Positions 6,109 through 24,455 of a DNA stretch of 64,000 nt are shown piece by piece. The stretch is from positions 1,120,001-1,184,000 of the forward strand of contig CBDBOV010000004.1 of NCBI GenBank assembly GCA_965208575.1, read 5' to 3'. A program made the position numbers and the translations under genes. A model generated the notes under the pieces. It did not search any database. It was not told where the DNA came from and saw only the letters and a list, made by a program, of their open reading frames with translations. The DNA comes from Spirochaetia bacterium (GTDB taxonomy: Bacteria; Spirochaetota; Spirochaetia; SZUA-6; Bin103). Positions within the stretch are counted from its first letter, which is position 1; each line of letters begins with the position of its first letter.

Positions 6109-6690
6109 CTAGCCGCCGAACGTTCGCGGCCTGAAGTCTTCGGCGTTGGTGATACTCGCGCTGCTGCCGGTCGCCCTGATCACGTACAGCCCGCGCGGCT
6201 CCGCGTACACCTCCGCCGACTCGTCCGCGCGCAGGTACGCCACCGCCCCGTATACCCGCTTGCCCCGGTACCCCGACGGCGCCTCGGACGGAAACACCTT
6301 CAGCGTCTCGATGAAGCGATCGACCTGACTCGCCTTGAGCGTGGTCTTCACTTCCACCACCACCACCTCGTCACCGCCGGCGGCGATGATGTCGATCTCC
6401 CAGCGCGGTGCGCCGTTCCTGCTCTTGAGGCCGCACACCGTGTGGTCGACCTCGATGCCGCGCCGGCTGAGCAACTCGATCAGGTCGCCTTCGACGAGAG
6501 CCTCCACCAGCTTGCTCCACTGACCGTTGAACAGATCCTCCAGCCGGCGCAGTTTACGGTCGGTCTCCTTCATCTGCCGGTCGGTCTCCTGCATGCGGCG
6601 GTCGGTCTCGCGCTGGCTCGCCGAGACTTCACGCAGGATGTTCCAGATCTCCTGCGGGGTTGCGGGCTCCTGCCGTGCGGTGTCAGCCAT
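6109..6690 (-). CDS. Coiled-coil plus PD-(D/E)XK nuclease-like protein (DUF3782-like)
   Basis: Heptad repeats ETDRRMQ/ETDRQMK/ETDRKLR followed by EIDII...VVEVKTTL nuclease-like motif; start at MADTARQ. Confidence 0.75.
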   Translation of the reverse strand: MADTARQEPATPQEIWNILREVSASQRETDRRMQETDRQMKETDRKLRRLEDLFNGQWSKLVEALVEGDLIELLSRRGIEVDHTVCGLKSRNGAPRWEIDIIAAGGDEVVVVEVKTTLKASQVDRFIETLKVFPSEAPSGYRGKRVYGAVAYLRADESAEVYAEPRGLYVIRATGSSASITNAEDFRPRTFGG

Positions 6691-6789
6691 TGGATCTTCT
6701 CGTAGCCGAAACATACCCTGCCGGCGTGCCACTGCCAACGCCGACACAACCAACAAGCAAGCGCCAAAACGCGCGCACCCGACCGGGGC

Positions 6790-6895
6790 GACTCAACGAG
6801 GCCGGGACCAATGGTCCCGGAAGGGGTCGGTGTGATACACGATCTCGCCTACGGCGTAGTCGCTTCAAGAAGGCCGCCGTGGAGGCGGTTGAATC
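6790..6895 (-). CRISPR. Degenerate single-spacer mini-array (putative Cas-regulating crRNA-like RNA, CreR/CreA-like)
   Basis: Repeat-like 6790-6824 GACTCAACGAGG-CCGGGACC-AAT-GGTCCCGG-AAGG and 6862-~6895 GCTTCAAGAAGG-CCGCC-GTGGA-GGCGG-TTGAATC resemble the array repeat GCTTCAATGAGG-CCGCCGG-AATTCA-CCGGCGG-AAAC and flank a 37-nt spacer (6825-6861). Confidence 0.85.
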
Positions 6896-6900
6896 TGTGC

Positions 6901-6930
6901 TTGACCTATCCACGTAATCAAGCTTAGACT
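6901..6930 (+). promoter_or_regulatory. Putative sigma70 promoter of the cas3-csx17-csb1-csb2 operon
   Basis: TTGACC (6901-6906), 18 bp, TAGACT (6925-6930) in an AT-richer patch upstream of cas3. Confidence 0.7.
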
Positions 6931-6940
6931 ATGCCGTAGG
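6924..6940 (+). promoter_or_regulatory. PAM (TTA) plus partial protospacer for the mini-array spacer
   Basis: TTA-GACTATGCCGTAGG versus minus-strand spacer 5' end GACTACGCCGTAGG: 13/14 identity, mismatch at position 6. Confidence 0.85.
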
Positions 6941-6957
6941 TAAAGGGCTATGGTCAA
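6928..6957 (-). promoter_or_regulatory. Putative divergent promoter driving the mini-array
   Basis: Minus strand TTGACC (6957-6952), 18 bp, CATAGT (6933-6928); an alternative TTGACA at 6975-6970. Confidence 0.5.
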
Positions 6958-7048
6958 GGCAGAGCTGATTGTCAAAAGCACCGTGACTCGCCAGCGCTCG
7001 TTACGAGCAGCGGCCGGCTCATGGCACGTCGCCGCCGTGGAGGAACGC

Positions 7049-7201
7049 ATGCGCACGCGGTGTGTGCACATAATATTCCACGACGGTGGGAAGTGGGAGT
7101 CGCCCGGTCCGCCCGATCGTGATCAACCTGGTGTCGACGCCGGCCAACCGCTGACAAGCGATGCGCCCGATCAGATTCCGGGTGCCGAGTCGCCACGATG
7201 A
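7049..7201 (+). CDS. Small 50-aa ORF in the cas3 leader (possible longer 83-aa form from 6950), stop overlapping cas3 start (ATGA)
   Basis: GGAGG SD 5 nt before ATG 7049; TGA overlaps cas3 ATG at 7198-7201; no recognised domain. Confidence 0.4.
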   Translation: MRTRCVHIIFHDGGKWESPGPPDRDQPGVDAGQPLTSDAPDQIPGAESPR

Positions 7202-9646
7202 CCTACGCTGGATTCTTCTCGGCAGCTTTCGGAGCGAGCGCTACGCCGTTTGCATACCAGCGAGCGCTTGCCGAGCGTGACTGGCCGGAAGCACTCATCG
7301 CACCGACAGGTCTTGGCAAAACTGCAGCGGTAGTTCTCGCTTGGCTGTGGAAACGTGCTACCGCGCCGGAGACTGCGCCACGGCGTTTGGTGTACTGCCT
7401 CCCTATGCGCACGCTCGCCGACCAGACGGCGCGCAACGTGGTGGCATGGCTGCGCCGGCTCGCTCCGCTCCTCGCTGACTGGGAGGCTCGTCTCCCGCGC
7501 CCAGAGACCGACGTCCACGTGCTCAAGGGCGGGGTGGACGAGCCGCGTTGGTACGAACACCCGGAGCGTCCGACGATTCTCATCGGGACTCAGGACATGC
7601 TGATAAGCCGCGCACTGATGCGCGGATACGCAATGAGCCGCTTCCGCTGGCCGGTCGACTTCGCCCTGCTCCACAACGACGCGCAGTGGGTGTTCGACGA
7701 AGTCCAGCTCATGAGTTCGGGGCTGGCGACTTCCACGCAGCTTGAAGGATTCCGGCGCCGATTCGGGACCGCGGTCGACTCTGCCAGCCTTTGGGTCTCG
7801 GCGACGCTGCACCCGGAGTGGCTGCGCACGGTCGATGGGCCGGCCAATCCGACCGTGTGGCGGGTGCCGGACGATTTTCCCGGCGACAAGGAGTCGCCCG
7901 CGGTGCGCAGGCGGATCGACGCGCCGAAACACATCGCACCGTCACGGGTGCGACCGGCAAGCGCCCGGAAGGCGGATCTGAGTGCCTACGTGCGGGAACT
8001 GGCCGGAGAAGCCCTCGCCTGTCATCAGCCGGGTACGATGACGCTGGTGATCCTCAACACGGTCGCCCGCGCGCAGCAGGTGCACGCCGCCCTCGTCAGG
8101 CACGGAACACCGTCCGACCGCCTGGCTCTGGTCCACTCCCGGTTTCGCCATGCCGACCGTACCGAGCAAATGACCAAGCTCCGACAACCGCTTACCACCG
8201 ACGGCCTGATCGTCGTCACCACGCAGGCGATCGAGGCTGGCGTCGACCTGTCCGCCGCCACGCTGATCACCGAACTCGCCCCGGCTTCTTCGTTGGTGCA
8301 GCGATTCGGCCGGGTGAACCGCTACGGCGAGTTGAATGAGAGCGGCGGCGCAACCGTCCGCTGGGTCGATCTTGCCGACATTGATGACACGCTCGCCGCA
8401 CCGTACGAACCGCGGGAGTTGACCACCGGCCGCGCGCGCATTGCACACCTGAGAGATGCCCGGCCGGCGCATCTTTCACCCCCGGCGCCTGAAGACTGCC
8501 GCCATCGCTGGGTAATCCGCGGTAAGGACCTGATCGACTTGTATGACACCGACCCGGACCTCACCGGATTCGACGTCGACGTCTCGCCGTACGTACGCGA
8601 CGCGGAAGACACCGACGTCCAGGTGTTCTGGCGCGACTTCGACCGTTCCGAAGGACCGGTCGGCCAGCCGCCTCCGGGGCACGAAGAGCTGTGCTCGGTG
8701 CCGATCGGACAGGCACGCGACTGGCTCAAGAAGGTGCGGGAGAAGCAGCGGCTGCGCCCGTATCAGGCCGATCCGCAGGCGCGGCGGCGCGGCGGCGCAT
8801 CGCACCACACCTCGTGGGTACCGCTCGACTCCCCCCCGTGGCCCGGTCTTGTGCTGATGTTCCACGTAGGAGCAGGCGGATACTCGTCAGCGACCGGATT
8901 CGACGCCGCCGAAACGGAGCCGGTCGTACCGGTGGGCCGCGCGGAAGAAGATGCTCGGGTAGCCGAGTCGCTCGACACGGATCCCGACAGCGAGCATCCG
9001 GCAGTGCCGCTGACCGCTCATCTCCGGCACGTGGCGACCGAGGGAGAACGGCTGTGTGACGCACTCGGGGTCTCCGCCGGCAACGCCGAGATCGCACTCG
9101 CGGCGCGCTGGCATGACATCGGAAAGTCACACCCGACGTTTCAGGAGCGCCTCGGCGTGAGCGCTACCGGCGCGCTGCTCGCCAAGGCGCCGCACTACGA
9201 CGTGACCCGAGGGCGCCCCTACTTCCGCCATGAACTGGCGTCTGCGCTGGCGTATCTCACCCACGCCGGGTGGGTGCGTGGCGCCGACCTGGTCGCGTAC
9301 CTCATCGCTGCCCACCACGGCAAGGTGCGCATGAACCTGCGTGCGCTGCCGGCGGAATCGCCGGCCACGAGCGCCGATGGCAATCCCGATACGCGCCGCT
9401 TCGCACGCGGCGTATGGGAGGGTGACGAGCTTCCGGAGGTCGACCTGCCGGCCGGCGAGAAGTGGAACGGCGGCGCACTGACCCTGGCGGTCATGGAACT
9501 GGGAGACGATGATCGAACCGGAGCGAGTTGGACCGAACGGACGCGCAACCTCCTGGAACGGTATGGGCCGTTTCGACTCGCATTCCTGGAATCCTTGCTG
9601 AGGGTCGCCGACTGGCGCGCATCGGCTACCGAAGAGGCAAACGGCT

Positions 9647-9657
<11 letters not shown>
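7198..9657 (+). CDS. cas3: Type I-G (I-U) Cas3 helicase with C-terminal HD nuclease
   Basis: APTGLGKT Walker A, DEVQ, SAT, QRFGRVNR helicase motifs; C-terminal H..HDIGK, RHELAS, HHG, ADWRAS; C-terminal HD is the I-G hallmark. Confidence 0.95.
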
Positions 9658-12911
<3,254 letters not shown>

Positions 12912-12924
12912 GTCGCCCGCTGAC

Positions 12925-14646
12925 ATGCTCGCGCTGTCGTTCAGCTTCCCGGCACATCGCTACCACGCCACGCCTTGGGGCCGTCACGTCAACGAAGCGG
13001 ACGTCGCATGGCCGCCGGAGCCGTGGCGGATACTCCGAGCCCTGATCGCCGCGTACTGGCGCAAGGGAACCTGTAATGACTGGTCGAAGGAAGATGCCAC
13101 GAGCCTGATCGATGCACTCGCCGCGGCGCCGCCGATATATCATCTGCCGGAAGGCACCGTGCATGCGCATACCCGACACTACATGCCGGCGCCGACCAAG
13201 ACCACGCTCGTGTTCGATGCGTTCGCTCACCTGCCGGACGGCGCAGCGATCGTCGCGGCGTGGCCGGAGTTGGTACTGGAGCCGCGGCAGTTCGCGCTGG
13301 CCGCCGACCTTGCCGAAGGCATCGGATACCTTGGACGCGCCGAGAGCTGGGTGGAGTGCACCGCGCTTACGAAGTGGGACGTTACTCTGGCGAACTGCCT
13401 GCCGGAGGATTACTCGGGGAACGGATCCGGCGAGATGGTGGGGGTGTTGACGCCGCTCACCGCGTCCGCTTACGCCGCGCGGCGGGCGCGCCTCCTCGGG
13501 CAGGCAGACGCCGACGAACGAGCCGCCGCTCACGCCGCCGCGAAGCGTCCGCCTACCGAAGGAGTGTTGCGCCGGAAGCGGGACCGGACCTTCGGCGTCA
13601 CGCTGCCCGAGCGCCTCATGGATGCGGTTGCGGTCGATACCGCGGACTTCCAGAAGCACGGCTGGAATCGGCCGCCCGCCGCACATGAAGTCAGTTACCG
13701 GCGCGCACCTCTCTCACCCCACCCGCGCCGTCCCGCGGGTCGAAGCGATCGCCCGCTCGATCGCTCCCGCTACACCGTAGCGCGCTATCTGCTCGCCGGC
13801 CGCCCGCAGCCGCGCATCGAAGACGCGGTCAAGATCGGCGAGCTGATGCGCGTAGCCGCGCTTTCCAAGTTCGGCTGGGAGAAGGATCCGCGCACGGGGC
13901 GCGGCAGACCCCTGGCACCGCCGGAGATCTCCGGGCGTGGCGAGGGCAACACGCCGTTGCGCGACGCGCACCACTCGCACGCGTTCTGGCTTCCGGAAGA
14001 TGCCGATGGCGACGGTCTGATCGACCACGTGTGCGTGTGCGCCGCCACCGGATTCGACGACCGCGCGCGAGTGGCATTGGATCGACTGACGCGCCTGTGG
14101 CTGCGGACCGGCACCTCGGAAGATTCGGCTGACCGCGACGGCGGGGGGCGCCGCGAGTGGCGGCTCGCGCTGGAGGGGTTCGGCACCTGCGATGAGTTCG
14201 CGCAAGCGTCCGCTTTGTTTCGCCGCGCGCGCACGTGGCAAAGCGTTACCCCCTTCCTGTCGACCGGCCACCTGAAACGGACGCGGGACGCACGCCAGGT
14301 ACGCCACATGCTGGAGCAGGGCCAACCGGTTGACGGCACCCTGGCGGACGCCACCGGCTACCCGCGCGAAGTGCGCCGTCTGCTGCAACGCCGCGGCATA
14401 CTCGCCGGCCCGCTCGCCGAGCAACTCGAGATCGAAATCCTGCCCCACATCGAGGTACACGGCGCTCCGCGCCGCCCCCTGCAATTCCACCGCTTCCGCT
14501 CCCGCGGCCGCGAAGCTGCCACCGATGCCCACGGAACCCTGCTCCGCCTCCGGTTCCCCGACGAGGTCCGCGGCCCCCTCGCACTCGGCTACGGCTGCCA
14601 CTTCGGCCTCGGCCTGTTCGCCGCCTGCGAGGAGCAGCCCACATGA
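12925..14646 (+). CDS. csb2: Type I-G Cas5-Cas6 fusion (Csb2)
   Basis: YHATPWGRHVNEADVAWPPEPWRILRAL, YLGRAESW, C-terminal Cas6 G-loop GPLALGYGCHFGLGLF. Confidence 0.93.
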   Translation: MLALSFSFPAHRYHATPWGRHVNEADVAWPPEPWRILRALIAAYWRKGTCNDWSKEDATSLIDALAAAPPIYHLPEGTVHAHTRHYMPAPTKTTLVFDAFAHLPDGAAIVAAWPELVLEPRQFALAADLAEGIGYLGRAESWVECTALTKWDVTLANCLPEDYSGNGSGEMVGVLTPLTASAYAARRARLLGQADADERAAAHAAAKRPPTEGVLRRKRDRTFGVTLPERLMDAVAVDTADFQKHGWNRPPAAHEVSYRRAPLSPHPRRPAGRSDRPLDRSRYTVARYLLAGRPQPRIEDAVKIGELMRVAALSKFGWEKDPRTGRGRPLAPPEISGRGEGNTPLRDAHHSHAFWLPEDADGDGLIDHVCVCAATGFDDRARVALDRLTRLWLRTGTSEDSADRDGGGRREWRLALEGFGTCDEFAQASALFRRARTWQSVTPFLSTGHLKRTRDARQVRHMLEQGQPVDGTLADATGYPREVRRLLQRRGILAGPLAEQLEIEILPHIEVHGAPRRPLQFHRFRSRGREAATDAHGTLLRLRFPDEVRGPLALGYGCHFGLGLFAACEEQPT

Positions 14647-14779
14647 CGAACTGCCAAGGTTGCCGATGCAGACTCCCCGTAAGTGACGGTCGATCCGCGC
14701 ACACTCGGTGGATAATGCGCGCCACTGACAGACACTGGACACGAGACGGCATCCGCGACCGGCCTCCTTGGGTATAGCG

Positions 14780-15280
14780 ATGGCACGCTGGATTGGTCCC
14801 GACCGAGACATCAGCGACGTTCTGGCCGCAGCCGAGCTGTGGCGCGATCGGTGCTTCCTGGGTGGCGGCTCGGTGTTCGGAGACGAGGCCCTGTGGGCGC
14901 TGGAGAATATTCAACAGGTCCGCGAGTTGTGTCCGGCTGAGAAAAAAGAGACAAGCGATGCTGCTTGGGCGCGGCTCAAGCAGCAATTGACCAACGCGAC
15001 GCCTCAGGTGATTCGTATGACCGCAGAGGCGGTGTGGCTGGCGTACCTGTTTCCGAGCGGTCCGCCCGGCGCGTTCAAGCGCCAGCGCTTCATGGAGTTG
15101 TGGGCGCTGTCCGGTGCCGAGCGGCCACGGAGCGGGCACCTGAGCGACTCGGCACTCCAGGGCATAGGAAGTGTCTATGGCGCGCATTTTAGAATCAGCA
15201 ATCCATTGCGCTTTCTGATGGAATTGCTGGAGCGCTGGGCAGCACGACCGACCACGGCGCTGCCAAGAGAGCGCCGGTGA
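14780..15280 (+). CDS. Stand-alone or truncated protein resembling the N-terminal domain of some McrB-like AAA+ restriction proteins
   Basis: AAELWRDRCFLGGGSVFGDEALW...LKQQL...AEAVWLAYLFP pattern recalled from McrB-family N-termini; no ATPase domain follows. Confidence 0.5.
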   Translation: MARWIGPDRDISDVLAAAELWRDRCFLGGGSVFGDEALWALENIQQVRELCPAEKKETSDAAWARLKQQLTNATPQVIRMTAEAVWLAYLFPSGPPGAFKRQRFMELWALSGAERPRSGHLSDSALQGIGSVYGAHFRISNPLRFLMELLERWAARPTTALPRERR

Positions 15281-15386
15281 CTACGAAAGCCAGGAGAGTC
15301 GAGCATCGTTTGGCTTCCGCCGCCGCGCACGTTCCGCAGCGGGGACGCTCGACAAGACGCGGCGTTACGCGCGACTCTCAAGATCA

Positions 15387-16280
15387 ATGAAAGAGACCCG
15401 CCCTCGGAAGGCCAGCACGACCGCGATACTGGTGGCCGCGGTGCGCGCCAGCCACCTCAGGTGGAATCGCGCGCCAATCTTCTCTGACCAGCACGCCATC
15501 GAGCTGGTGACGCCGTTCTGGCGGCTGGTCGCCAACAACTGGTTGCTGAACCGACTCGTGGTCGACGTGCTGATCCGCACGCTCAAGCCCACGCACACCG
15601 TGATCATCCTGCGCATCAGGTACGCGGAGGACCGGCTCCATGAGGCGATCTCGTCCGGGGTGCGGCAGTACGTGATCCTCGGAGCCGGGCTCGACACGTT
15701 CGCCCTTCGCCATCGCGAGCTGGCGGATCGGCTGCGCATCTACGAAGTCGATCATCCGGCATCGCAGGAGATGAAGCGAGAGCAACTTGGCCGCGTTGGC
15801 AGCTCGCTGCCTTCGAATCTACGGTTCGTACCGGTCGACTTCGAGACCGACCGCCTCGACGAGGCACTCATCCGGGCCGGCTTCGACCGTGAAGCTCCGG
15901 CCTTCTTTGCGTGGCTTGGCGTCACGTGCTACCTGACGACAGAGGCCGTGACCGACACGATCGGCCAGGTTGCCGCTCTTGCCGCGCCGGGCAGCCGCAT
16001 GGTGCTCGACTACCGGTATCCGCGGCGCCTTGTTCCCGATGCCAAGCTGGCGCTCGTCGAGAAGATGGACCGATTCGTGGAACGCCGCGGTGAGCCGATG
16101 CTGTCAGAATACGGCCCCGAGGAGATCGACACTGAGATGGAGCGGGCCGGCTTCACGGCGATCGATCACGTCTCGCCGACCGAACAAGTGCGGCGCTACC
16201 TGCAGGAACGCCGCGACATCCCCGAGCCGCCCCCCAACTTCGCGTTCGCCCTGTTCGAGAAGAGCAGCACGAGCAAGTGA
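15387..16280 (+). CDS. Class I SAM-dependent methyltransferase (LCM/TIGR00027-like)
   Basis: QYVILGAGLDT, YEVDHP, VPVDFE, WLGVTCYL motifs. Confidence 0.9.
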   Translation: MKETRPRKASTTAILVAAVRASHLRWNRAPIFSDQHAIELVTPFWRLVANNWLLNRLVVDVLIRTLKPTHTVIILRIRYAEDRLHEAISSGVRQYVILGAGLDTFALRHRELADRLRIYEVDHPASQEMKREQLGRVGSSLPSNLRFVPVDFETDRLDEALIRAGFDREAPAFFAWLGVTCYLTTEAVTDTIGQVAALAAPGSRMVLDYRYPRRLVPDAKLALVEKMDRFVERRGEPMLSEYGPEEIDTEMERAGFTAIDHVSPTEQVRRYLQERRDIPEPPPNFAFALFEKSSTSK

Positions 16281-16360
16281 TCCGTGCTCCCGTTCGCTGT
16301 GGCGCGGCCCGGCGGCTCCACCTGCGGAGCGTCAGGGCGCCGCACGAACGCACCGCGGAC

Positions 16361-16580
16361 GCGGACAATCCCGACCGCGAACTGGTCGAGAAGCGAGCCG
16401 ACTACGCGGAGACCGGCATCCCGGAGTACTGGATCGCCGACCCGCGCGACGAGACGATTCGCGTGCTGACGCTGCGGGGCACCGCCTACTTCGAGCAAGC
16501 TGTGTATCGACACGGCAACGCGGCGCCGTCGGCTCTGCTCGCCCGCTTCTCTGCCGAGGTGAGCACGGTGTTCGACTCCC
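16361..16580 (+). pseudogene. Uma2 (DUF820) endonuclease C-terminal fragment
   Basis: DNPDRELVEKRADYAETGIPEYWIADP..IRVLTL; N-terminal catalytic half and native start missing; boundaries approximate. Confidence 0.75.
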
Positions 16581-16627
16581 CGGTGGCCGGCGTGCAGCCC
16601 TTCGTATCGCCGAGCGACCGTGCTGTT

Positions 16628-17245
16628 TCATCCAAAGAGACTGCGGTAATCGCCGCGGAACACCAACGGTTGGAGACGCCTGTTCTCCTGCGTGACCGGC
16701 CCGCCCGACAGAATCTGACGTGCTCGCAGAGCATCGGAATCGTCGAGAAAGCTACCGGTATGGACGAAGTGATCGGGAAAGAGCAGGTCGAACTCCGTGC
16801 GATAGCCGTCGTCAATGATCACGAAGCGCCCGACGTCCGGGTGCGTGTCCAGGTACTGCTTTACTTCGCCTGCGCGGTAATGCGGCGCACCCAGGTGGTC
16901 GCACGTGCGATCAGTGACCAGGTGATCGAGGTCGTGAATGCGGAACAGCGCCTGGAGTTGCGCCACCGACCGCCGTTGCCGCCAATCCGAACTGACCACG
17001 ACCTTTGCGTCGTGGTCGTCGCATAGCGCGCGCAGCCGCGCCACCGCCACGGCGTGCCAGTCATGGACGACGGCTCCCAGGTCGTACTCGTTCACCTCCC
17101 GGTATTCGGCGCCGAACCGCTCGGCGAGGCGTTCCCGCAACGCGACGAGGTCGTGCTTGAAACGCTTCTGGCTCGACGGCGGCTGCAACACTCCGTCGAT
17201 GTCCAGGAAGACGATCCGGCTCGTAGGTGGGCTATCGTGCATCAA
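16628..17245 (-). CDS. HAD-superfamily phosphatase (Swiss-army-knife RNA-repair-like HAD domain)
   Basis: VFLDIDGVL (DxD), VVVSSDWR, R..EV..YL, FVIIDD motifs. Confidence 0.8.
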   Translation of the reverse strand: MMHDSPPTSRIVFLDIDGVLQPPSSQKRFKHDLVALRERLAERFGAEYREVNEYDLGAVVHDWHAVAVARLRALCDDHDAKVVVSSDWRQRRSVAQLQALFRIHDLDHLVTDRTCDHLGAPHYRAGEVKQYLDTHPDVGRFVIIDDGYRTEFDLLFPDHFVHTGSFLDDSDALRARQILSGGPVTQENRRLQPLVFRGDYRSLFG

Positions 17246-17373
17246 TAGGTACCATCCCGAGAGTCCTCGGTTGTGCCGCCGCGCGTCAACAACGCGTCCA
17301 ATCCGTTACTCTTGAGGAGCGGGACGAGCCTCCCTGCAAGCCTGCATGATAACTAGTTGACTGTGCAGGTGAC

Positions 17374-20300
17374 GCTTCAATGAGGCCGCCGGAATTCACC
17401 GGCGGAAACGTGGGCGGGTGGCAGATTCGCACGACCATCCCGTTCGGCGCTTCAATGAGGCCGCCGGAATTCACCGGCGGAAACGTCTGGGCAAACGAAA
17501 CGCTGAGGTGCACTTCGTCAAGCTTCAATGAGGCCGCCGGAATTCACCGGCGGAAACCCGACTCACCGCAGGTCGCAAAGCGTTTCGTAGGCTACCGGCT
17601 TCAATGAGGCCGCCGGAATTCACCGGCGGAAACCTCCCCTCGGTGTAGGACGCCCCCACGAGCGACACGCCGCTTCAATGAGGCCGCCGGAATTCACCGG
17701 CGGAAACACGCCGTAGAACCCCAGGTCCTCGTAGTGCCCCTCGTAGCTTCAATGAGGCCGCCGGAATTCACCGGCGGAAACACGCCGTAGAACCCCAGGT
17801 CCTCGTAGTGCCCCTCGTAGCTTCAATGAGGCCGCCGGAATTCACCGGCGGAAACTACTTCTTTTCGACCTTGTGAACCTCTACGTTCGTGAAGCTTCAA
17901 TGAGGCCGCCGGAATTCACCGGCGGAAACAACATCATCGGCGCGCTTGCCGGTTGCAAGCCAATTAGCGCTTCAATGAGGCCGCCGGAATTCACCGGCGG
18001 AAACGACACGCGGCCGCGGTGCTGCACGCGGGAAGCGGCGCTTCAATGAGGCCGCCGGAATTCACCGGCGGAAACCGTGGTGAGCGCCATGCTTGCCTGT
18101 CTGGTGTTCATCATGCTTCAATGAGGCCGCCGGAATTCACCGGCGGAAACATCACACAAAGCCTGCCGAGCGCATGGTCGCTAATCTCGCTTCAATGAGG
18201 CCGCCGGAATTCACCGGCGGAAACCGCATACCTGCTCGGTCGTGCCGTCAGCACGGCGCAGCGTGCTTCAATGAGGCCGCCGGAATTCACCGGCGGAAAC
18301 CAGCTTCCTCGTATGCTGCAGCAGTTAGCAGAATATGTCTGCTTCAATGAGGCCGCCGGAATTCACCGGCGGAAACCAGGTTGCACAGCCCGGCATCCAC
18401 GGGGTGTGCGAAGCTTCAATGAGGCCGCCGGAATTCACCGGCGGAAACGCCGACCCGGAGGTCACGTTCAACACGCGCCCGGCGGGGCTTCAATGAGGCC
18501 GCCGGAATTCACCGGCGGAAACTTGAAGATCATAGACCGAGACGTCGAAATGCGGCACGGCTTCAATGAGGCCGCCGGAATTCACCGGCGGAAACACGGC
18601 ATAATCATCTACCGGAGTAGCGGAATTGGAAACGCTTCAATGAGGCCGCCGGAATTCACCGGCGGAAACTACGCTTAGCTTCCGGGTTCTTAATCCGTGT
18701 AGATTCATGCTTCAATGAGGCCGCCGGAATTCACCGGCGGAAACCATCCTGTACATGATGGTACATTTGAGTACCATTAGGCGGCTTCAATGAGGCCGCC
18801 GGAATTCACCGGCGGAAACACCGATGAAAATTCTGGAGCGCCGGCGCGAACGGCTCCTGCTTCAATGAGGCCGCCGGAATTCACCGGCGGAAACATGTAT
18901 CGCGGCGCCGCGCGCGTCCGATACCTGCACGCTTCAATGAGGCCGCCGGAATTCACCGGCGGAAACCAGCGCTGCGTTTCGATGGCGCTGGCAACCCAGC
19001 CATCGAGCTTCAATGAGGCCGCCGGAATTCACCGGCGGAAACCACCCATAGGCCGACCGGGGTTTGCGCCGGCCCCTTCCGCTTCAATGAGGCCGCCGGA
19101 ATTCACCGGCGGAAACCCCGCCCGGATCTCGGGTGGAAGACAAGATCGCCTGGGCGCTTCAATGAGGCCGCCGGAATTCACCGGCGGAAACACCCGAACT
19201 GACCCGGAGGGTACAGTTGACGAAAAGCCGCTTCAATGAGGCCGCCGGAATTCACCGGCGGAAACGGCTCACAGGACTTGATACACGCCGCGCAACAACA
19301 GGCTTCAATGAGGCCGCCGGAATTCACCGGCGGAAACACCGGGACGGACGTTACCCTGGAGACGGAGACGCACGCTTCAATGAGGCCGCCGGAATTCACC
19401 GGCGGAAACGCGTTCTGGGAACGACTCGACGAGGAGTACGGCAACACCGCTTCAATGAGGCCGCCGGAATTCACCGGCGGAAACCCGTTCGAGCAATTCA
19501 TGGCGCAGCGTGAGGCGCTGCGCTTCAATGAGGCCGCCGGAATTCACCGGCGGAAACTACTATTGTCGCACATCCGTCAACCCCCGTCAACCCCTGCTTC
19601 AATGAGGCCGCCGGAATTCACCGGCGGAAACGTCACCGGACTCGGCGCGTGGATCGACGGCGCGTTCGGGGCTTCAATGAGGCCGCCGGAATTCACCGGC
19701 GGAAACCCGTCCCCTCCGGGATCGGATCACTCCCATCATCCCCGCGCTTCAATGAGGCCGCCGGAATTCACCGGCGGAAACACTGACCCCGGAGGGTCAA
19801 CCAGTGACGAAAAGTCAGCTTCAATGAGGCCGCCGGAATTCACCGGCGGAAACACGCCGTTCAGCGCGACATTGAGCGACTGCCGATCGCCGCTTCAATG
19901 AGGCCGCCGGAATTCACCGGCGGAAACACGCCGTTCAGCGCGACATTGAGCGACTGCCGATGGCCGCTTCAATGAGGCCGCCGGAATTCACCGGCGGAAA
20001 CGTTTCGACCGCCTCAGGATGCCCGCACAGCGCGATTCCGCTTCAATGAGGCCGCCGGAATTCACCGGCGGAAACCAGCGGCCGCCGTGCCAGCGCAGAT
20101 ACTCATTCACCGCCGCTTCAATGAGGCCGCCGGAATTCACCGGCGGAAACCCATCCGCACCACCCTTGTCGAACCGCTGGAGGAGGGGGCTTCAATGAGG
20201 CCGCCGGAATTCACCGGCGGAAACTGCGCCGACGAGGTCGTCCGCTTGTGTGAAGATGACGCCGCTTCAATGAGGCCGCCGGAATTCACCGGCGGAAACC

Positions 20301-22153
20301 AGGTAGTATATTGATAGTGGGCGGTTGACGCCAGCCCGCTTCAATGAGGCCGCCGGAATTCACCGGCGGAAACGCCAGCGGCGGCCCGCTGCTCGGCCGG
20401 GTCCGGCTCGCTTCAATGAGGCCGCCGGAATTCACCGGCGGAAACTCGTAGAGCACCTGGAAGTCGAAGGACACGCGCTCCTCGCTTCAATGAGGCCGCC
20501 GGAATTCACCGGCGGAAACGCACCACGTGAACGGTGACCCCGGCGACAACCGGATCGGGCTTCAATGAGGCCGCCGGAATTCACCGGCGGAAACTTGCTC
20601 CCGATCCTCCGCCTCCGGTGAGGGCTACGTCGGGCTTCAATGAGGCCGCCGGAATTCACCGGCGGAAACCACCTGCGCGGCGCACCGAGCGGTCGCGTGT
20701 ACGAAGTGCTTCAATGAGGCCGCCGGAATTCACCGGCGGAAACTTCACCACCACGGGTGCCTACGCGGGCGGAGTGGCGGCTTCAATGAGGCCGCCGGAA
20801 TTCACCGGCGGAAACGGCACCGACTTCCGCCCGGTGTTCGAGTACATGGAACGCGCTTCAATGAGGCCGCCGGAATTCACCGGCGGAAACGCCGACGTGC
20901 TCACCCTGCGTGACGGTCAGAGACTCCGCGCTTCAATGAGGCCGCCGGAATTCACCGGCGGAAACTCGCGGGTGCCGGGGTGGCGGAGGCGCGGGCGGTT
21001 CAAGTGCTTCAATGAGGCCGCCGGAATTCACCGGCGGAAACCGGAAGACCATAGCCAGCGACGGACGCAAGCTTTTCTAGCTTCAATGAGGCCGCCGGAA
21101 TTCACCGGCGGAAACGCGCTGCGCGATTGGTTGTCGTCAGAGTGGATCACAGACGCTTCAATGAGGCCGCCGGAATTCACCGGCGGAAACTCGGCGCCGA
21201 TAGCGACGCAGCCAACAACCCGAACGGGGCTTCAATGAGGCCGCCGGAATTCACCGGCGGAAACGCCGCGAGGTCACGTGCTATCGCATCGTCCCACCCC
21301 ACGCTTCAATGAGGCCGCCGGAATTCACCGGCGGAAACGGAGCCATCGACGTGGCCTCATGCGTCTCACATTGCCCTGCTTCAATGAGGCCGCCGGAATT
21401 CACCGGCGGAAACGCGGACATCGTAGGGCAAGGGGCCGACGACATCACAATCGCTTCAATGAGGCCGCCGGAATTCACCGGCGGAAACCCACGTGACAGT
21501 TGAAGAGGCTCTGCAACAGGTAAACCAGCTTCAATGAGGCCGCCGGAATTCACCGGCGGAAACCAGTGTTGCCGGCAAGGTTGCGCGCGGGTGGCGCGGC
21601 TGGGCTTCAATGAGGCCGCCGGAATTCACCGGCGGAAACTTGCGCAAGGCGAGCGTCGACGCTTCAGAGGTGTCATTGCTTCAATGAGGCCGCCGGAATT
21701 CACCGGCGGAAACCTGTTCTCGACGCCGACGCGCTTCGCCAAGCTCACCTGGCTTCAATGAGGCCGCCGGAATTCACCGGCGGAAACCTCGACCTGGAGG
21801 ATTCGGAGCGCCGCGTGAAGGTGCTTCAATGAGGCCGCCGGAATTCACCGGCGGAAACCCGTGATGCGCACTCAATACCGCTGCTCCGCCTACCCCGCTT
21901 CAATGAGGCCGCCGGAATTCACCGGCGGAAACTCATCGGGGCCGGCGGAGCCCTCGTCGGCGGAATCGTCGGCTTCAATGAGGCCGCCGGAATTCACCGG
22001 CGGAAACATCGACCGCCTCATGAGGAAGGGCGCCACTCTACAGGCTTCAATGAGGCCGCCGGAATTCACCGGCGGAAACTGGCGCAGCAATCCGACCAGC
22101 AACGCCAGGCCTCCTGGGCTTCAATGAGGCCGCCGGAATTCACCGGCGGAAAC
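17374..22153 (-). CRISPR. CRISPR array, 65 identical 36-bp repeats and 64 spacers (35-40 bp), hand count
   Basis: Repeat (minus strand) GTTTCCGCCGGTGAATTCCGGCGGCCTCATTGAAGC with 7-bp hairpin and ATTGAAGC 3' end; orientation from ATTGAAG terminus and AT-rich leader next to cas2. Confidence 0.98.
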
Positions 22154-22655: not shown

Positions 22656-24455
22656 CTAGCGGGTCGTGAAGTTCGGATACGCGGGGATCTCACCGAGCAT
22701 GAATCGGCCCAGCAGGCGGGCCTGGATCTCCATGAGCCGGCGGTAGCTTACCCGGTACCCGAATAGCGGGTGCACGATCTCGTGGCCCAGGCGGCGCTCG
22801 AACGCGCCGATCAGGTGGCGCCTGCCGTCCGGCGTCAGGGCGACGGCCCCGGCGGCGGCCCTGAAGTCGGATGCCTTCACTTCGCCGTTGTTGATTACCT
22901 GCACCACCACCGAGTCGGCGAGCAGCGGTCGAAACGGCTCCATGAGATCCAGGGCGAGGGCGGGACGGCCGTAGCGCGGCTGATGAAAGAGACCGCGAAA
23001 CGGATCGAACCCGACCGCGGCGAGCGTCACGGTCCAGGCTCGGACGAGCAACGAGTACGCGAACGACAGCAGCGCGTTGACCGGGTCGGTTGGCGGGCGC
23101 CGGTTGCGCTTCTCGAAGTCGAACGCTCCCTGCCCCTCGCGCATCCCCTCGCTGATCATGGCCCCGAACACGCGGAAGTAGCGCGCGGCGGCGGTGCCCT
23201 CTACGCCGAGCAGCACCGACAGCGACCGGCAGCGAGCCACGCGCCTGCTGTCGTCCCGGAGCTCGATCATCACGTCGTGGCTGCTGGCGGGGCCTTTCCA
23301 GTTGCGGCGCAGCAGAGTGCGGGAGTTGAGGATCTTGGCCCGCACCAGGTCCTTCGCGAACCGCAGACACACGTCCTCGTCGAAGCTGGCCCGATACTGG
23401 GCGGTGCGCAGTTCCACGTTCTTGTGTCCGTTGCCAACCGTGTGGCCGTAGAACCAGCCGCCGTGGCTGTGCCAGGTAACCGGAATCCCCCGCCACATCA
23501 ACTCCTGCAGGCAAGGCGTGGTGACGTACACGCTGCCCATCAGCACCACCTGCGAGGTCTCCGGCAGGCGGGCGGTAGTTACCTTCTCGTCCTTGACGCT
23601 GACCACCAGGTTTTCGCCCGACTTGGCCACCCTTGCGCCGCGCGCCTGCACGTACAGCGGCAGCGCATCGGTCCCCGGCACCGCAATCGGCCGCGGCGCC
23701 ATTTCTGGACGCGACAGCAGCCGCAGGTGGTTGATCTCATCCGGCAGGCAGATGTTCACCAGTGAGCAGCGCGGACACTTCGGGCTGTCCTCCAGCGGCG
23801 GCGGGATCACTCCCTCGGCCGCGACCCGCCGCAGCCCGGCAACCGCCTGCTTGGTGGCGGACACCAGTTCCTCGTCGAACGGCACCCGAACGCGCTCGCG
23901 TCCGGCTACGAAGTAGAGTACGCCCTCGTCACATCGGTACCCCCGGTCACGCAGGATCAGGCCCTGAACGCACAGTTGCACCCGCTCCGGTTCGTACGCG
24001 CCGCCCTTCACGTGCGGGCGCTTGCCGCGCTTGTAGTCGACCGGTACGACCCCACCATCCGCCACCTCGATCAGGTCCATGCGCGAGATCAAGCCGAGCC
24101 GCTGCGACGACAGCGTGACCGACCTGGCGTGCAGCTTCTCGTACTCTCCGGCGTCGGCGGCTGCCGGCAACGACCCGCCACTTCGGTCCACCCTGCGGTG
24201 GGCGTGCCTTCCCTCGACCGTGTCCGCCGAGTCCGCCCACTCACCCTGCACCCACTCCAGGTACGCCAGTCGCGGACAGTACGCGTACTCATTGACCATG
24301 CGCGCCGGCACCAGCGGGGGTGCCTCACCGGGAGCCGGGAACGCAAGTTCGCCTTGGCGCGGCGGGGCGTTCCGTTCGACTTGTGCCTTCCGGTCGCCAA
24401 CCAGCCGCGGTGCGTCGTGTGCAGCAGCGGCACGTCTATCATCATTCCCGCTCAT
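22656..24455 (-). CDS. cas1: Cas4-Cas1 fusion
   Basis: Cas4: YCPR, DYKRG, QLC, C-terminal CPRCSLVNIC Fe-S cysteines; Cas1: LLGVEGTAAARYF, RRPPTDPVNALLSF, LALDLMEPFR. Confidence 0.96.
   Translation of the reverse strand: MSGNDDRRAAAAHDAPRLVGDRKAQVERNAPPRQGELAFPAPGEAPPLVPARMVNEYAYCPRLAYLEWVQGEWADSADTVEGRHAHRRVDRSGGSLPAAADAGEYEKLHARSVTLSSQRLGLISRMDLIEVADGGVVPVDYKRGKRPHVKGGAYEPERVQLCVQGLILRDRGYRCDEGVLYFVAGRERVRVPFDEELVSATKQAVAGLRRVAAEGVIPPPLEDSPKCPRCSLVNICLPDEINHLRLLSRPEMAPRPIAVPGTDALPLYVQARGARVAKSGENLVVSVKDEKVTTARLPETSQVVLMGSVYVTTPCLQELMWRGIPVTWHSHGGWFYGHTVGNGHKNVELRTAQYRASFDEDVCLRFAKDLVRAKILNSRTLLRRNWKGPASSHDVMIELRDDSRRVARCRSLSVLLGVEGTAAARYFRVFGAMISEGMREGQGAFDFEKRNRRPPTDPVNALLSFAYSLLVRAWTVTLAAVGFDPFRGLFHQPRYGRPALALDLMEPFRPLLADSVVVQVINNGEVKASDFRAAAGAVALTPDGRRHLIGAFERRLGHEIVHPLFGYRVSYRRLMEIQARLLGRFMLGEIPAYPNFTTR

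Follow-up and report, generated by a model that had tools for sequence, protein, structure and literature searches.

Circuits in which a guide RNA directs a CRISPR effector to repress its own operon are already known from other CRISPR subtypes, and a prediction for type I-G, the subtype whose older name is I-U, is already in print. The window considered here is a stretch of 64,000 nucleotides (nt) from a Spirochaetia bacterium (GenBank assembly GCA_965208575.1, contig CBDBOV010000004.1, positions 1,120,001 to 1,184,000 of the forward strand). It carries a type I-G CRISPR-Cas locus and, 300 nt upstream of cas3g and divergent from the cas operon, a small element with the anatomy of a mini-CRISPR. 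This anatomy is conserved in related genomes, and the spacer within it co-varies with a target in the promoter that faces cas3g. On these comparative grounds, the element very probably specifies a CreR-type RNA that guides the I-G Cascade complex to repress its own operon.

Autorepression by CreR has been demonstrated for types I-B, I-E, and V-A (Liu et al., 10.1101/2023.03.10.532045), and the same preprint reports creA-like mini-CRISPRs, identified by manual search, for I-D, I-C, I-E, I-F, and I-U. In a separate survey, mini-arrays were found in a fraction of 0.04 of 235 I-G loci (Shmakov et al., PMC10120712, Table 1), and an I-F1 mini-array guide repressed its promoter without interference. 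The main text of that survey describes no I-G case, its supplementary lists may hold I-G loci, and I-G has no occurrence in the available text of the two later crlRNA preprints. Our literature search, which lay outside supplementary files and figures, found no experimental I-G CreR, and this agrees with the statement in the original prediction for this window that no experimentally characterized I-G example was known. The novelty which that prediction claimed for I-G was overstated, since I-U/I-G mini-CRISPRs had already been predicted (10.1101/2023.03.10.532045; PMC10120712). What is new here is the comparative evidence, together with a candidate from a genus in which a tractable I-G system exists.

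Anatomy of the mini-CRISPR and its target

Read on the minus strand from 6897 to 6790, the element consists of a degenerate repeat, a 37-nt spacer, and a second degenerate repeat, just as had been described for it. The features that define the element and its surroundings are listed below in window coordinates.

6862 to 6897, minus strand: first degenerate repeat (psiR-5'), with a 5-bp hairpin (CCGCC/GGCGG), CCTT, and the 8-nt handle CTTGAAGC at 6869-6862
6825 to 6861, minus strand: spacer of 37 nt (psi-spacer), which begins GACTACGCCGTAGG; its seed, bases 1-14 (6861-6848), matches the promoter site
6790 to 6824, minus strand: second degenerate repeat (psiR-3'), with an 8-bp hairpin (TTCCGGGACC-ATT-GGTCCCGG), CCTC, and GTTGAGTC
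6798 to 6869, minus strand: predicted mature CreR-like RNA of 72 nt, as expected from the Csb2 rule (8-nt handle, 37-nt spacer, and 27-nt 3' hairpin part)
6924 to 6943, plus strand: protospacer-adjacent motif (PAM) TTA at 6924-6926 and target of the psi-spacer, with 13 of 14 positions matched at 6927-6940 and position 17 (6943) also matching
6950 to 7201, plus strand: small open reading frame (ORF) of 83 amino acids (aa), here ORF83, which lies behind the targeted promoter and ahead of cas3g, with a stop codon that overlaps the start of cas3g (ATGA)
6901 to 6930, plus strand: predicted promoter of the ORF83-cas3g operon, with -35 TTGACC at 6901-6906, an 18-nt spacer, and -10 TAGACT at 6925-6930
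6928 to 6957, minus strand: putative mini-CRISPR promoter, TTGACC-18-CATAGT, a consensus match back to back with the cas3g promoter
17374 to 22153, read on the minus strand: main CRISPR array, in which 65 identical 36-nt repeats enclose 64 spacers with lengths of 35-40 nt

The main array lies ∼10.5 kb from the mini-CRISPR, and both are read on the minus strand. On this strand, each array repeat has a 7-bp hairpin followed by CCTC and the terminal ATTGAAGC; this arrangement fits the rule for I-G Csb2 (PMC9638904), and the direction of transcription is therefore fixed. Under this rule, the enzyme cuts 4 nt to the 3' side of the base of the hairpin, so that a handle of 8 nt stays at the 5' end (PMC9638904). 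Both degenerate repeats retain a hairpin, 4 nt, and an 8-nt handle, a geometry that matches the Csb2 cleavage rule as judged from the sequence (PMC9638904). Of the final 18 bases of the array repeat, 16 are retained in the first, with the handle CTTGAAGC where the array has ATTGAAGC, and the second keeps TTCCG, a hairpin, and CCTC. The length of the psi-spacer falls within the range of the array spacers. The hairpin pattern of psiR-3' is unique in the genome. The best match of psiR-3' in Rfam is CRISPR-DR16 on the minus strand (18.5 bits), and the best match of the array repeats is to the same family and strand (26.3 bits); neither score reaches the gathering score of 35.

An exact 13-nt direct repeat, GCCGCCGTGGAGG, occurs on the plus strand within the psiR-5' hairpin (6873-6885) and again inside the small ORF (7031-7043). 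It could reflect chance in GC-rich DNA, or it could be a trace of another copy of the repeat; by eye, it was not seen in the upstream sequence of the related genome G003.

The spacer match starts directly after the 8-nt handle, and the target match starts directly after TTA. On the plus strand, the target at 6927-6940 reads GACTATGCCGTAGG, and its sole mismatch to spacer bases 1-14 is at position 6, which confirms the 13/14 seed match that had been reported after TTA. Beyond the seed, positions 15, 16, and 18-22 are mismatched. This agreement between spacer and promoter is far beyond chance. Within the window, the seed pattern with at most one mismatch occurs at two sites only, where 0.03 were expected and none of 100 shuffles gave two, and the full seed pattern is found in the 6.5-Mb genome only at the spacer and the promoter site, so that the guide has no second full-seed target in this genome.

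A promoter scan gave three promoter-like sites in 900 nt, against 0.2 expected. One of them, at 6901-6930, is the TTGACC-18-TAGACT promoter facing cas3 that the original prediction had placed over the target; the PAM and the first four target bases overlap its -10 box. Another is the putative promoter of the mini-CRISPR, whose own -10 (6933-6928) sits on the target site, and a minus-strand promoter-like site that overlaps the target is also present in three relatives (G015, G009, and G022). One complex bound at the target could thus block both divergent promoters. The third site (6738-6710, minus strand) precedes the next gene.

The reported PAM of type I-G is TTN (PMC9638904). A blastn comparison of the 64 array spacers with the genome found no protospacers, only chance-level matches of 17-23 nt, and the assignment of the PAM here therefore rests on the literature and on a PAM control described below. 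As for a possible phage mimic of the guide, a degenerate handle-plus-seed pattern had no matches in viral contigs.

Conservation, co-variation, and independent loci

Among 61 genomes queried with positions 6700-7400, the 5' end of cas3g was matched in 10, including the genome of the window itself. A homologous mini-CRISPR lies upstream of cas3g in each of the nine relatives, at the same location and with the same orientation. The intergenic DNA does not align among these genomes, except for a 23-nt exact match across seed and handle in G015. When the 10 genomes are aligned, invariant columns fall only in the handle, in the GCC.T.GG core of the spacer, and in the 3' hairpin with its CCTC. Columns resembling CTCTTTGAAGC in the psiR-5' handle are invariant or nearly so, and the psiR-3' columns CCGGG...CCCGGCCTC are invariant, with compensatory changes at two inner stem pairs. 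The psi-spacer is 34-39 nt long in nine of the 10 genomes; its sequence is kept in the first ∼17 nt only, and its 3' half has no sequence conservation. Large arrays with the same repeat as the window, or nearly the same, were found in all five of the nine relatives that were checked. It follows that the degenerate repeats are conserved variants of long standing and do not represent copies of another array.

Pairing between the mini-CRISPR spacer and the promoter upstream of cas3g is kept in eight of the 10 genomes and has changed on both sides, the kind of co-varying pair that the original prediction had pointed to. In these eight, the spacer matches a plus-strand site 64-73 nt from the handle, with agreement at 11-14 of the 15 non-sixth positions between 1 and 18. 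The site is preceded by TTA in seven genomes and by TTT in one, and a predicted sigma-70-like promoter ends at the target or a few bases before it in all eight. Across G001, G007, G006, G009, and G022, spacer and target have changed together to A:A or T:T at position 3, A:A or G:G at position 4, C:C or T:T at position 5, A:A or G:G at position 7, and C:C or G:G at position 8. Within the subgroup of the window itself, position 3 is C:C in its own genome and T:T in G003. In three genomes (that of the window, G015, and G003), the conserved core starts at position 7 in spacer and target alike; in the other five it starts at position 9 in both, which amounts to a concordant 2-nt shift on the two sides.

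The distribution of mismatches carries a signature of Cascade, as I-G Cas7 is reported to flip out every sixth base of the CRISPR RNA (crRNA) (PMC9638904). Taking the eight pairs together, 12 of the 16 cells at positions 6 and 12 hold a mismatch, compared with 10 of 96 at the other positions from 1 to 14. The mismatch rate at positions 6, 12, and 18 is close to that of random bases, and the other positions are held. The variable base of the NTA core is matched in all three genomes where it falls at position 10, and mismatched in all five where it falls at position 12.

Loci outside this clade were sampled by taking 80 of 572 confirmed relatives of Cas3g (591 stretches scanned in genome contigs). 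Removing five loci that repeated clade genomes and adding our own ten gave 85 loci, 75 of them non-clade. A scan for a handle-like word and a spacer with a TTN-flanked match, skipping positions 6, 12, and 18 and requiring the PAM TT, was positive in 14 of the 85 loci. The other five registers gave 6-9 loci each, and the other 15 PAM dinucleotides gave 0-7; the background of the scan is not zero, since the TC and GC PAMs gave seven loci each. The TTN PAM and the tolerance at flipped-out sixth bases, both of which had been taken as established for type I-G, agree with the literature (PMC9638904), with the PAM control, and with the mismatches at positions 6, 12, and 18.

A detector that used architecture only (handle, 30-42 nt, perfect hairpin, and CCTC) identified mini-arrays upstream of cas3g in four of the 75 non-clade loci (L024, L032, L060, and L083), in line with the fraction reported for I-G loci by Shmakov et al. 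(PMC10120712). All four have a TTN-flanked seed match and a layout that is clear by eye: a hairpin, 4 nt, and an 8-nt handle, then a spacer of ∼37 nt and a 3' hairpin of the CCGGG type. These mini-arrays are on the same strand as cas3g, and the seed match lies upstream, with mismatches at positions 6, 12, and/or 18. For example, in Thioalkalivibrio halophilus HL17 (L060) the mini-array extends from ∼170 to 10 nt upstream of cas3g. Over six non-clade pairs, the sixth positions are mismatched in 14 of 18 cells and the others in 7 of 90. From these independent loci, it follows that the window element belongs to a class of I-G mini-arrays that extends across several phyla.

When the psiR-3' hairpin pattern was used to look for new clade members in metagenomes, it matched at least 119 stretches. 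Most of the 80 listed matches were true I-G arrays with a CCGGG...CCCGG repeat hairpin. In the 41 single or double matches, with one side of each searched, no convincing new promoter-targeting pair was found; the best pair reached 10/15 and lacked TTN. Many true CRISPR arrays on the metagenome contigs L108-L182 have the CCGGG...CCCGG hairpin and a CCTCATT tail, as in psiR-3'. On account of these repeats, psiR-3' is closer to the working repeats of other I-G-like systems than to the hairpin of its own array.

A proposed autorepression circuit and its alternatives

In the proposed circuit, the mini-CRISPR would be transcribed on the minus strand, probably from the promoter that lies back to back with the cas3g promoter. 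Csb2 would cut 4 nt after each hairpin and release a crRNA-like RNA of ∼72 nt (6869-6798), made up of the handle CUUGAAGC, the 37-nt spacer, and the 3' hairpin. This guide would load into I-G Cascade (Cas8g, Cas7g, and Csb2), and its first 14-17 bases would pair with the template strand at 6927-6943, beside the TTA PAM. Cascade at this site would cover the -10 box and the start region of the ORF83-cas3g-cas8g-cas7g-csb2 promoter. Because the pairing is too short for a full R-loop, Cascade would act as a roadblock without cutting by Cas3, and would lower the transcription of its own operon; with guides of this type, the I-F1 experiment gave no cleavage (PMC10120712). Repression would ease when crRNAs compete for the Cas proteins or when an anti-CRISPR disables Cascade, following the published CreR model, in which crRNA competition or anti-CRISPRs bring relief (10.1101/2023.03.10.532045). 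The sequence-level features of a CreR are all present in the mini-CRISPR (the repeats, the handle and hairpin, a PAM-proximal partial match, and a promoter target), and the RNA-guided autorepression put forward for this locus appears well supported, in that all of the evidence that sequence comparison can provide fits it.

Several points weigh against this reading. In the genome G008, pairing works only when it is displaced from the handle by 11 nt (11/15), in G004 it has decayed to 9/15, and the automatic best sites in these two genomes are non-homologous (10/15). The C/T of CGCC/TGCC is mismatched where it falls at position 6 (2/3) and also where it falls at position 8 (3/5), which misfits a flip-out. 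Members of the clade are kin, of about two lineages, so that the cells are not independent and the per-position counts overstate independence. The low mismatch at non-sixth positions arises partly by construction, because pairs were picked on their non-sixth matches. Several relatives have a weak psiR-5' hairpin or none, which makes 5' processing by Csb2 less certain than 3' processing. The predicted promoters are consensus matches. A look for sequencing runs that cover 6400-7900 gave six, all of DNA or of unknown kind, and no RNA run. Lastly, a conserved hairpin in the spacer is neither predicted nor explained by the plain CreR model, and the operators of proteins are also palindromic.

This hairpin occupies the first 21-26 nt of the psi-spacer. 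The same hairpin, or palindrome, centred on NTA is found in every clade member (also L002-L010); its outer arms co-vary, and its 3' arm is without a counterpart in the target. The energies of folding are modest, with z between +0.6 and -3.1, and among the 64 ordinary spacers 22 likewise reach -8 kcal/mol; the case for the hairpin therefore rests on its shared topology. It may gate the loading or the stability of the guide, or it may be a protein site.

It is rather doubtful that the module goes beyond a plain CreR by combining a shut-off of two promoters, a hairpin that masks the seed, and a small ORF that acts as a Cascade-repressed effector or toxin. If it did, one Cascade bound where the two -10 boxes overlap would silence the cas operon together with the guide's own gene. 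The spacer hairpin would mask the seed in the free RNA and tune its competition with ordinary crRNAs, and the small ORF, in the subgroup of the window, would make the I-G locus addictive or anti-CRISPR-sensing.

The last of these possibilities is related to a further explanation, an addiction module similar to CreTA, in which the mini-CRISPR is a CreA-type antitoxin, ORF83 is the toxin repressed by Cascade, and the loss or inhibition of Cascade harms the cell. Such a function would add to the regulation of the cas genes and not replace it. ORF83 is indeed the first reading frame behind the repressed promoter, with a stop that overlaps the start of cas3g, and G015 and G003 each have a weak homologue of it at this place, with 24-35% identity across the first ∼45 residues. 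The two small ORFs have the following coordinates.

1736 to 1924 of L005, minus strand: small ORF homologue, same position
1700 to 1924 of L008, minus strand: small ORF homologue, same position

Furthermore, a divergent layout with a guide aimed at the promoter of the neighbour resembles CreTA (PMC10120712), and a protein toxin repressed by Cascade has been reported (10.1101/2024.01.05.574328). On the other side, the mini-CRISPR is kept in five of the eight pairing genomes that either lack such an ORF (G001, G007, G009, and G022) or have an unrelated one (G006, where it shows the same ATGA overlap). ORF83 matches no family in NCBIfam, Pfam, or the phage families of PHROG, and a word search, which was confined to proteins of near length, found no homologue. 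The three copies have only 24-35% identity to one another, and ORF83 carries no sequence mark of toxicity. We regard an addiction module as improbable.

A still less probable explanation is that a transcription factor binds two palindromic sites, one in the spacer core and one at the promoter, flanked by the remains of a decayed mini-array that has no guide function. The palindrome GCC-NTA-GGC is present in both sites, the copy in the spacer is an extended palindrome in every clade member, and the target is palindromic beyond its paired part in G007, G009, and G006 (by eye). However, a pair of operators leaves unexplained why the match begins precisely where the 8-nt handle ends on one side and TTA on the other, with a 2-nt shift that is concordant, and why positions 6, 12, and 18 are free to vary with their neighbours held. 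It also leaves unexplained the retained Csb2 geometry in both repeats, the retained length of the spacer, and the appearance of the same layout in unrelated I-G loci of different sequence. No regulator gene is adjacent, and the core motif is not enriched in the genome, with 69 copies compared with a median of 74 for GCC-NNN-GGC variants. With this count, the idea of a wider regulon was also rejected.

Two other explanations seem highly improbable. The two arms of the match form an inverted repeat, 93% complementary and 65 nt apart, and could act at the level of RNA, if a longer minus-strand transcript that starts beyond 6940 formed a 14-bp stem around psiR-5' as a signal for processing or stability. 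The transcript would, however, lack the second arm, because the predicted minus-strand -10 (6933-6928) sits on the target, and a stem does not predict the conserved TTA or the pattern at positions 6, 12, and 18. That the element is a dead remnant, a fragment of an old array with a spacer that matches the promoter by chance, is contradicted by conservation: its repeats are degenerate and good pairing has been lost in two of 10 genomes, but 0.03 such matches would be expected by chance in 64 kb, and genomes in which the intergenic DNA around the module can no longer be aligned still share the module, the pairing, and the PAM.

The type I-G locus and comparison with known systems

The effector genes that a CreR-type guide would regulate, and the adaptation gene beyond the array, are located as follows.

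7198 to 14646, plus strand: type I-G effector operon, with all four cas genes above NCBIfam curated cut-offs
7198 to 9657, plus strand: cas3g (Cas3g, 748 bits)
9647 to 11968, plus strand: cas8g/csx17 (Cas8g/Csx17, 592 bits)
11958 to 12911, plus strand: cas7g/csb1 (NCBIfam)
12925 to 14646, plus strand: csb2 (NCBIfam)
22797 to 23657, minus strand: Cas1 domain (PF01867, 302 bits) in a 603-aa open frame on the far side of the array

The matches to Cas3g, Cas8g/Csx17, Csb1/Cas7g, and Csb2 bear out the original assignment of the system to type I-G, and the 603-aa frame is probably a Cas4-Cas1 fusion. Between csb2 and the array (14768-17315) are an ORF of 170 aa without an assignment, an LCM-type S-adenosylmethionine (SAM) methyltransferase (15387-16280), and an ORF for a nuclease of the Uma2 family (16277-17026). 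On the other side of the mini-CRISPR, the neighbouring minus-strand ORF at 6109-6756 has a weak match to Hjc/YraN-type nucleases (PF01870, 24 bits) and contains 2.5 copies of a 21-nt tandem repeat (6557-6609). A promoter-like site of its own lies at 6738-6710, and the ORF probably starts with the ATG at 6692.

A circuit of this type would extend the RNA-guided self-regulation of CRISPR-Cas to I-G, the least studied of the type I subtypes. The comparative evidence, which includes compensatory changes, a shift of register, and freedom at every sixth position, is unusually clear for a purely computational case. In addition, T. halophilus HL17 belongs to the same genus as the source of the I-G system that has been reconstituted in Escherichia coli (PMC9638904, PMC10482374). 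For the use of I-G systems as tools, an element of this type would limit the levels of the effector and respond to crRNA load.

The likeness to CreR is close. In both, a degenerate mini-CRISPR of two repeats lies beside the cas genes, with a first repeat that retains bases of the 5' handle and a second that retains the 3' handle and hairpin. In both, only the PAM-proximal part of the spacer pairs (15 nt in Salmonella I-E, 14-17 nt here), and a PAM-flanked target is located next to or in the promoter of the effector genes (10.1101/2023.03.10.532045). The locus described here differs in its subtype, I-G, with Csb2, a fusion of Cas5 and Cas6, as the predicted processing enzyme. It differs also in having cas3 as the first cas gene of the operon that would be repressed, in a mini-CRISPR that is divergent from this operon with a putative promoter of its own overlapping the target, and in a spacer that carries a conserved hairpin.

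In the mini-arrays of Shmakov et al. (PMC10120712), a spacer with partial complementarity to a cas promoter likewise sits between two repeat-like sequences, and every sixth base is marked in the predicted duplexes. The targets described for them are the promoters of cas8, cas10d, or cas6 in types I-E, I-F1, I-D, and I-B, whereas here the operon is led by cas3g. In CreTA, which pairs the CreA antitoxin RNA with the CreT toxin in haloarchaeal I-B systems, a degenerate mini-CRISPR RNA also guides Cascade to the promoter of a neighbour through partial pairing. CreTA requires a toxin under the repressed promoter; in the window, this place is taken only by an uncharacterized ORF of 83 aa that is missing from most relatives. 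In the autorepression of cas9 by tracr-L (type II-A), a natural guide likewise uses a short pairing (11 bp) with its own cas promoter (PMC10120712). That system belongs to a different class, and it has a single effector protein and a guide derived from the trans-activating crRNA (tracrRNA), with no mini-array (PMC10120712).

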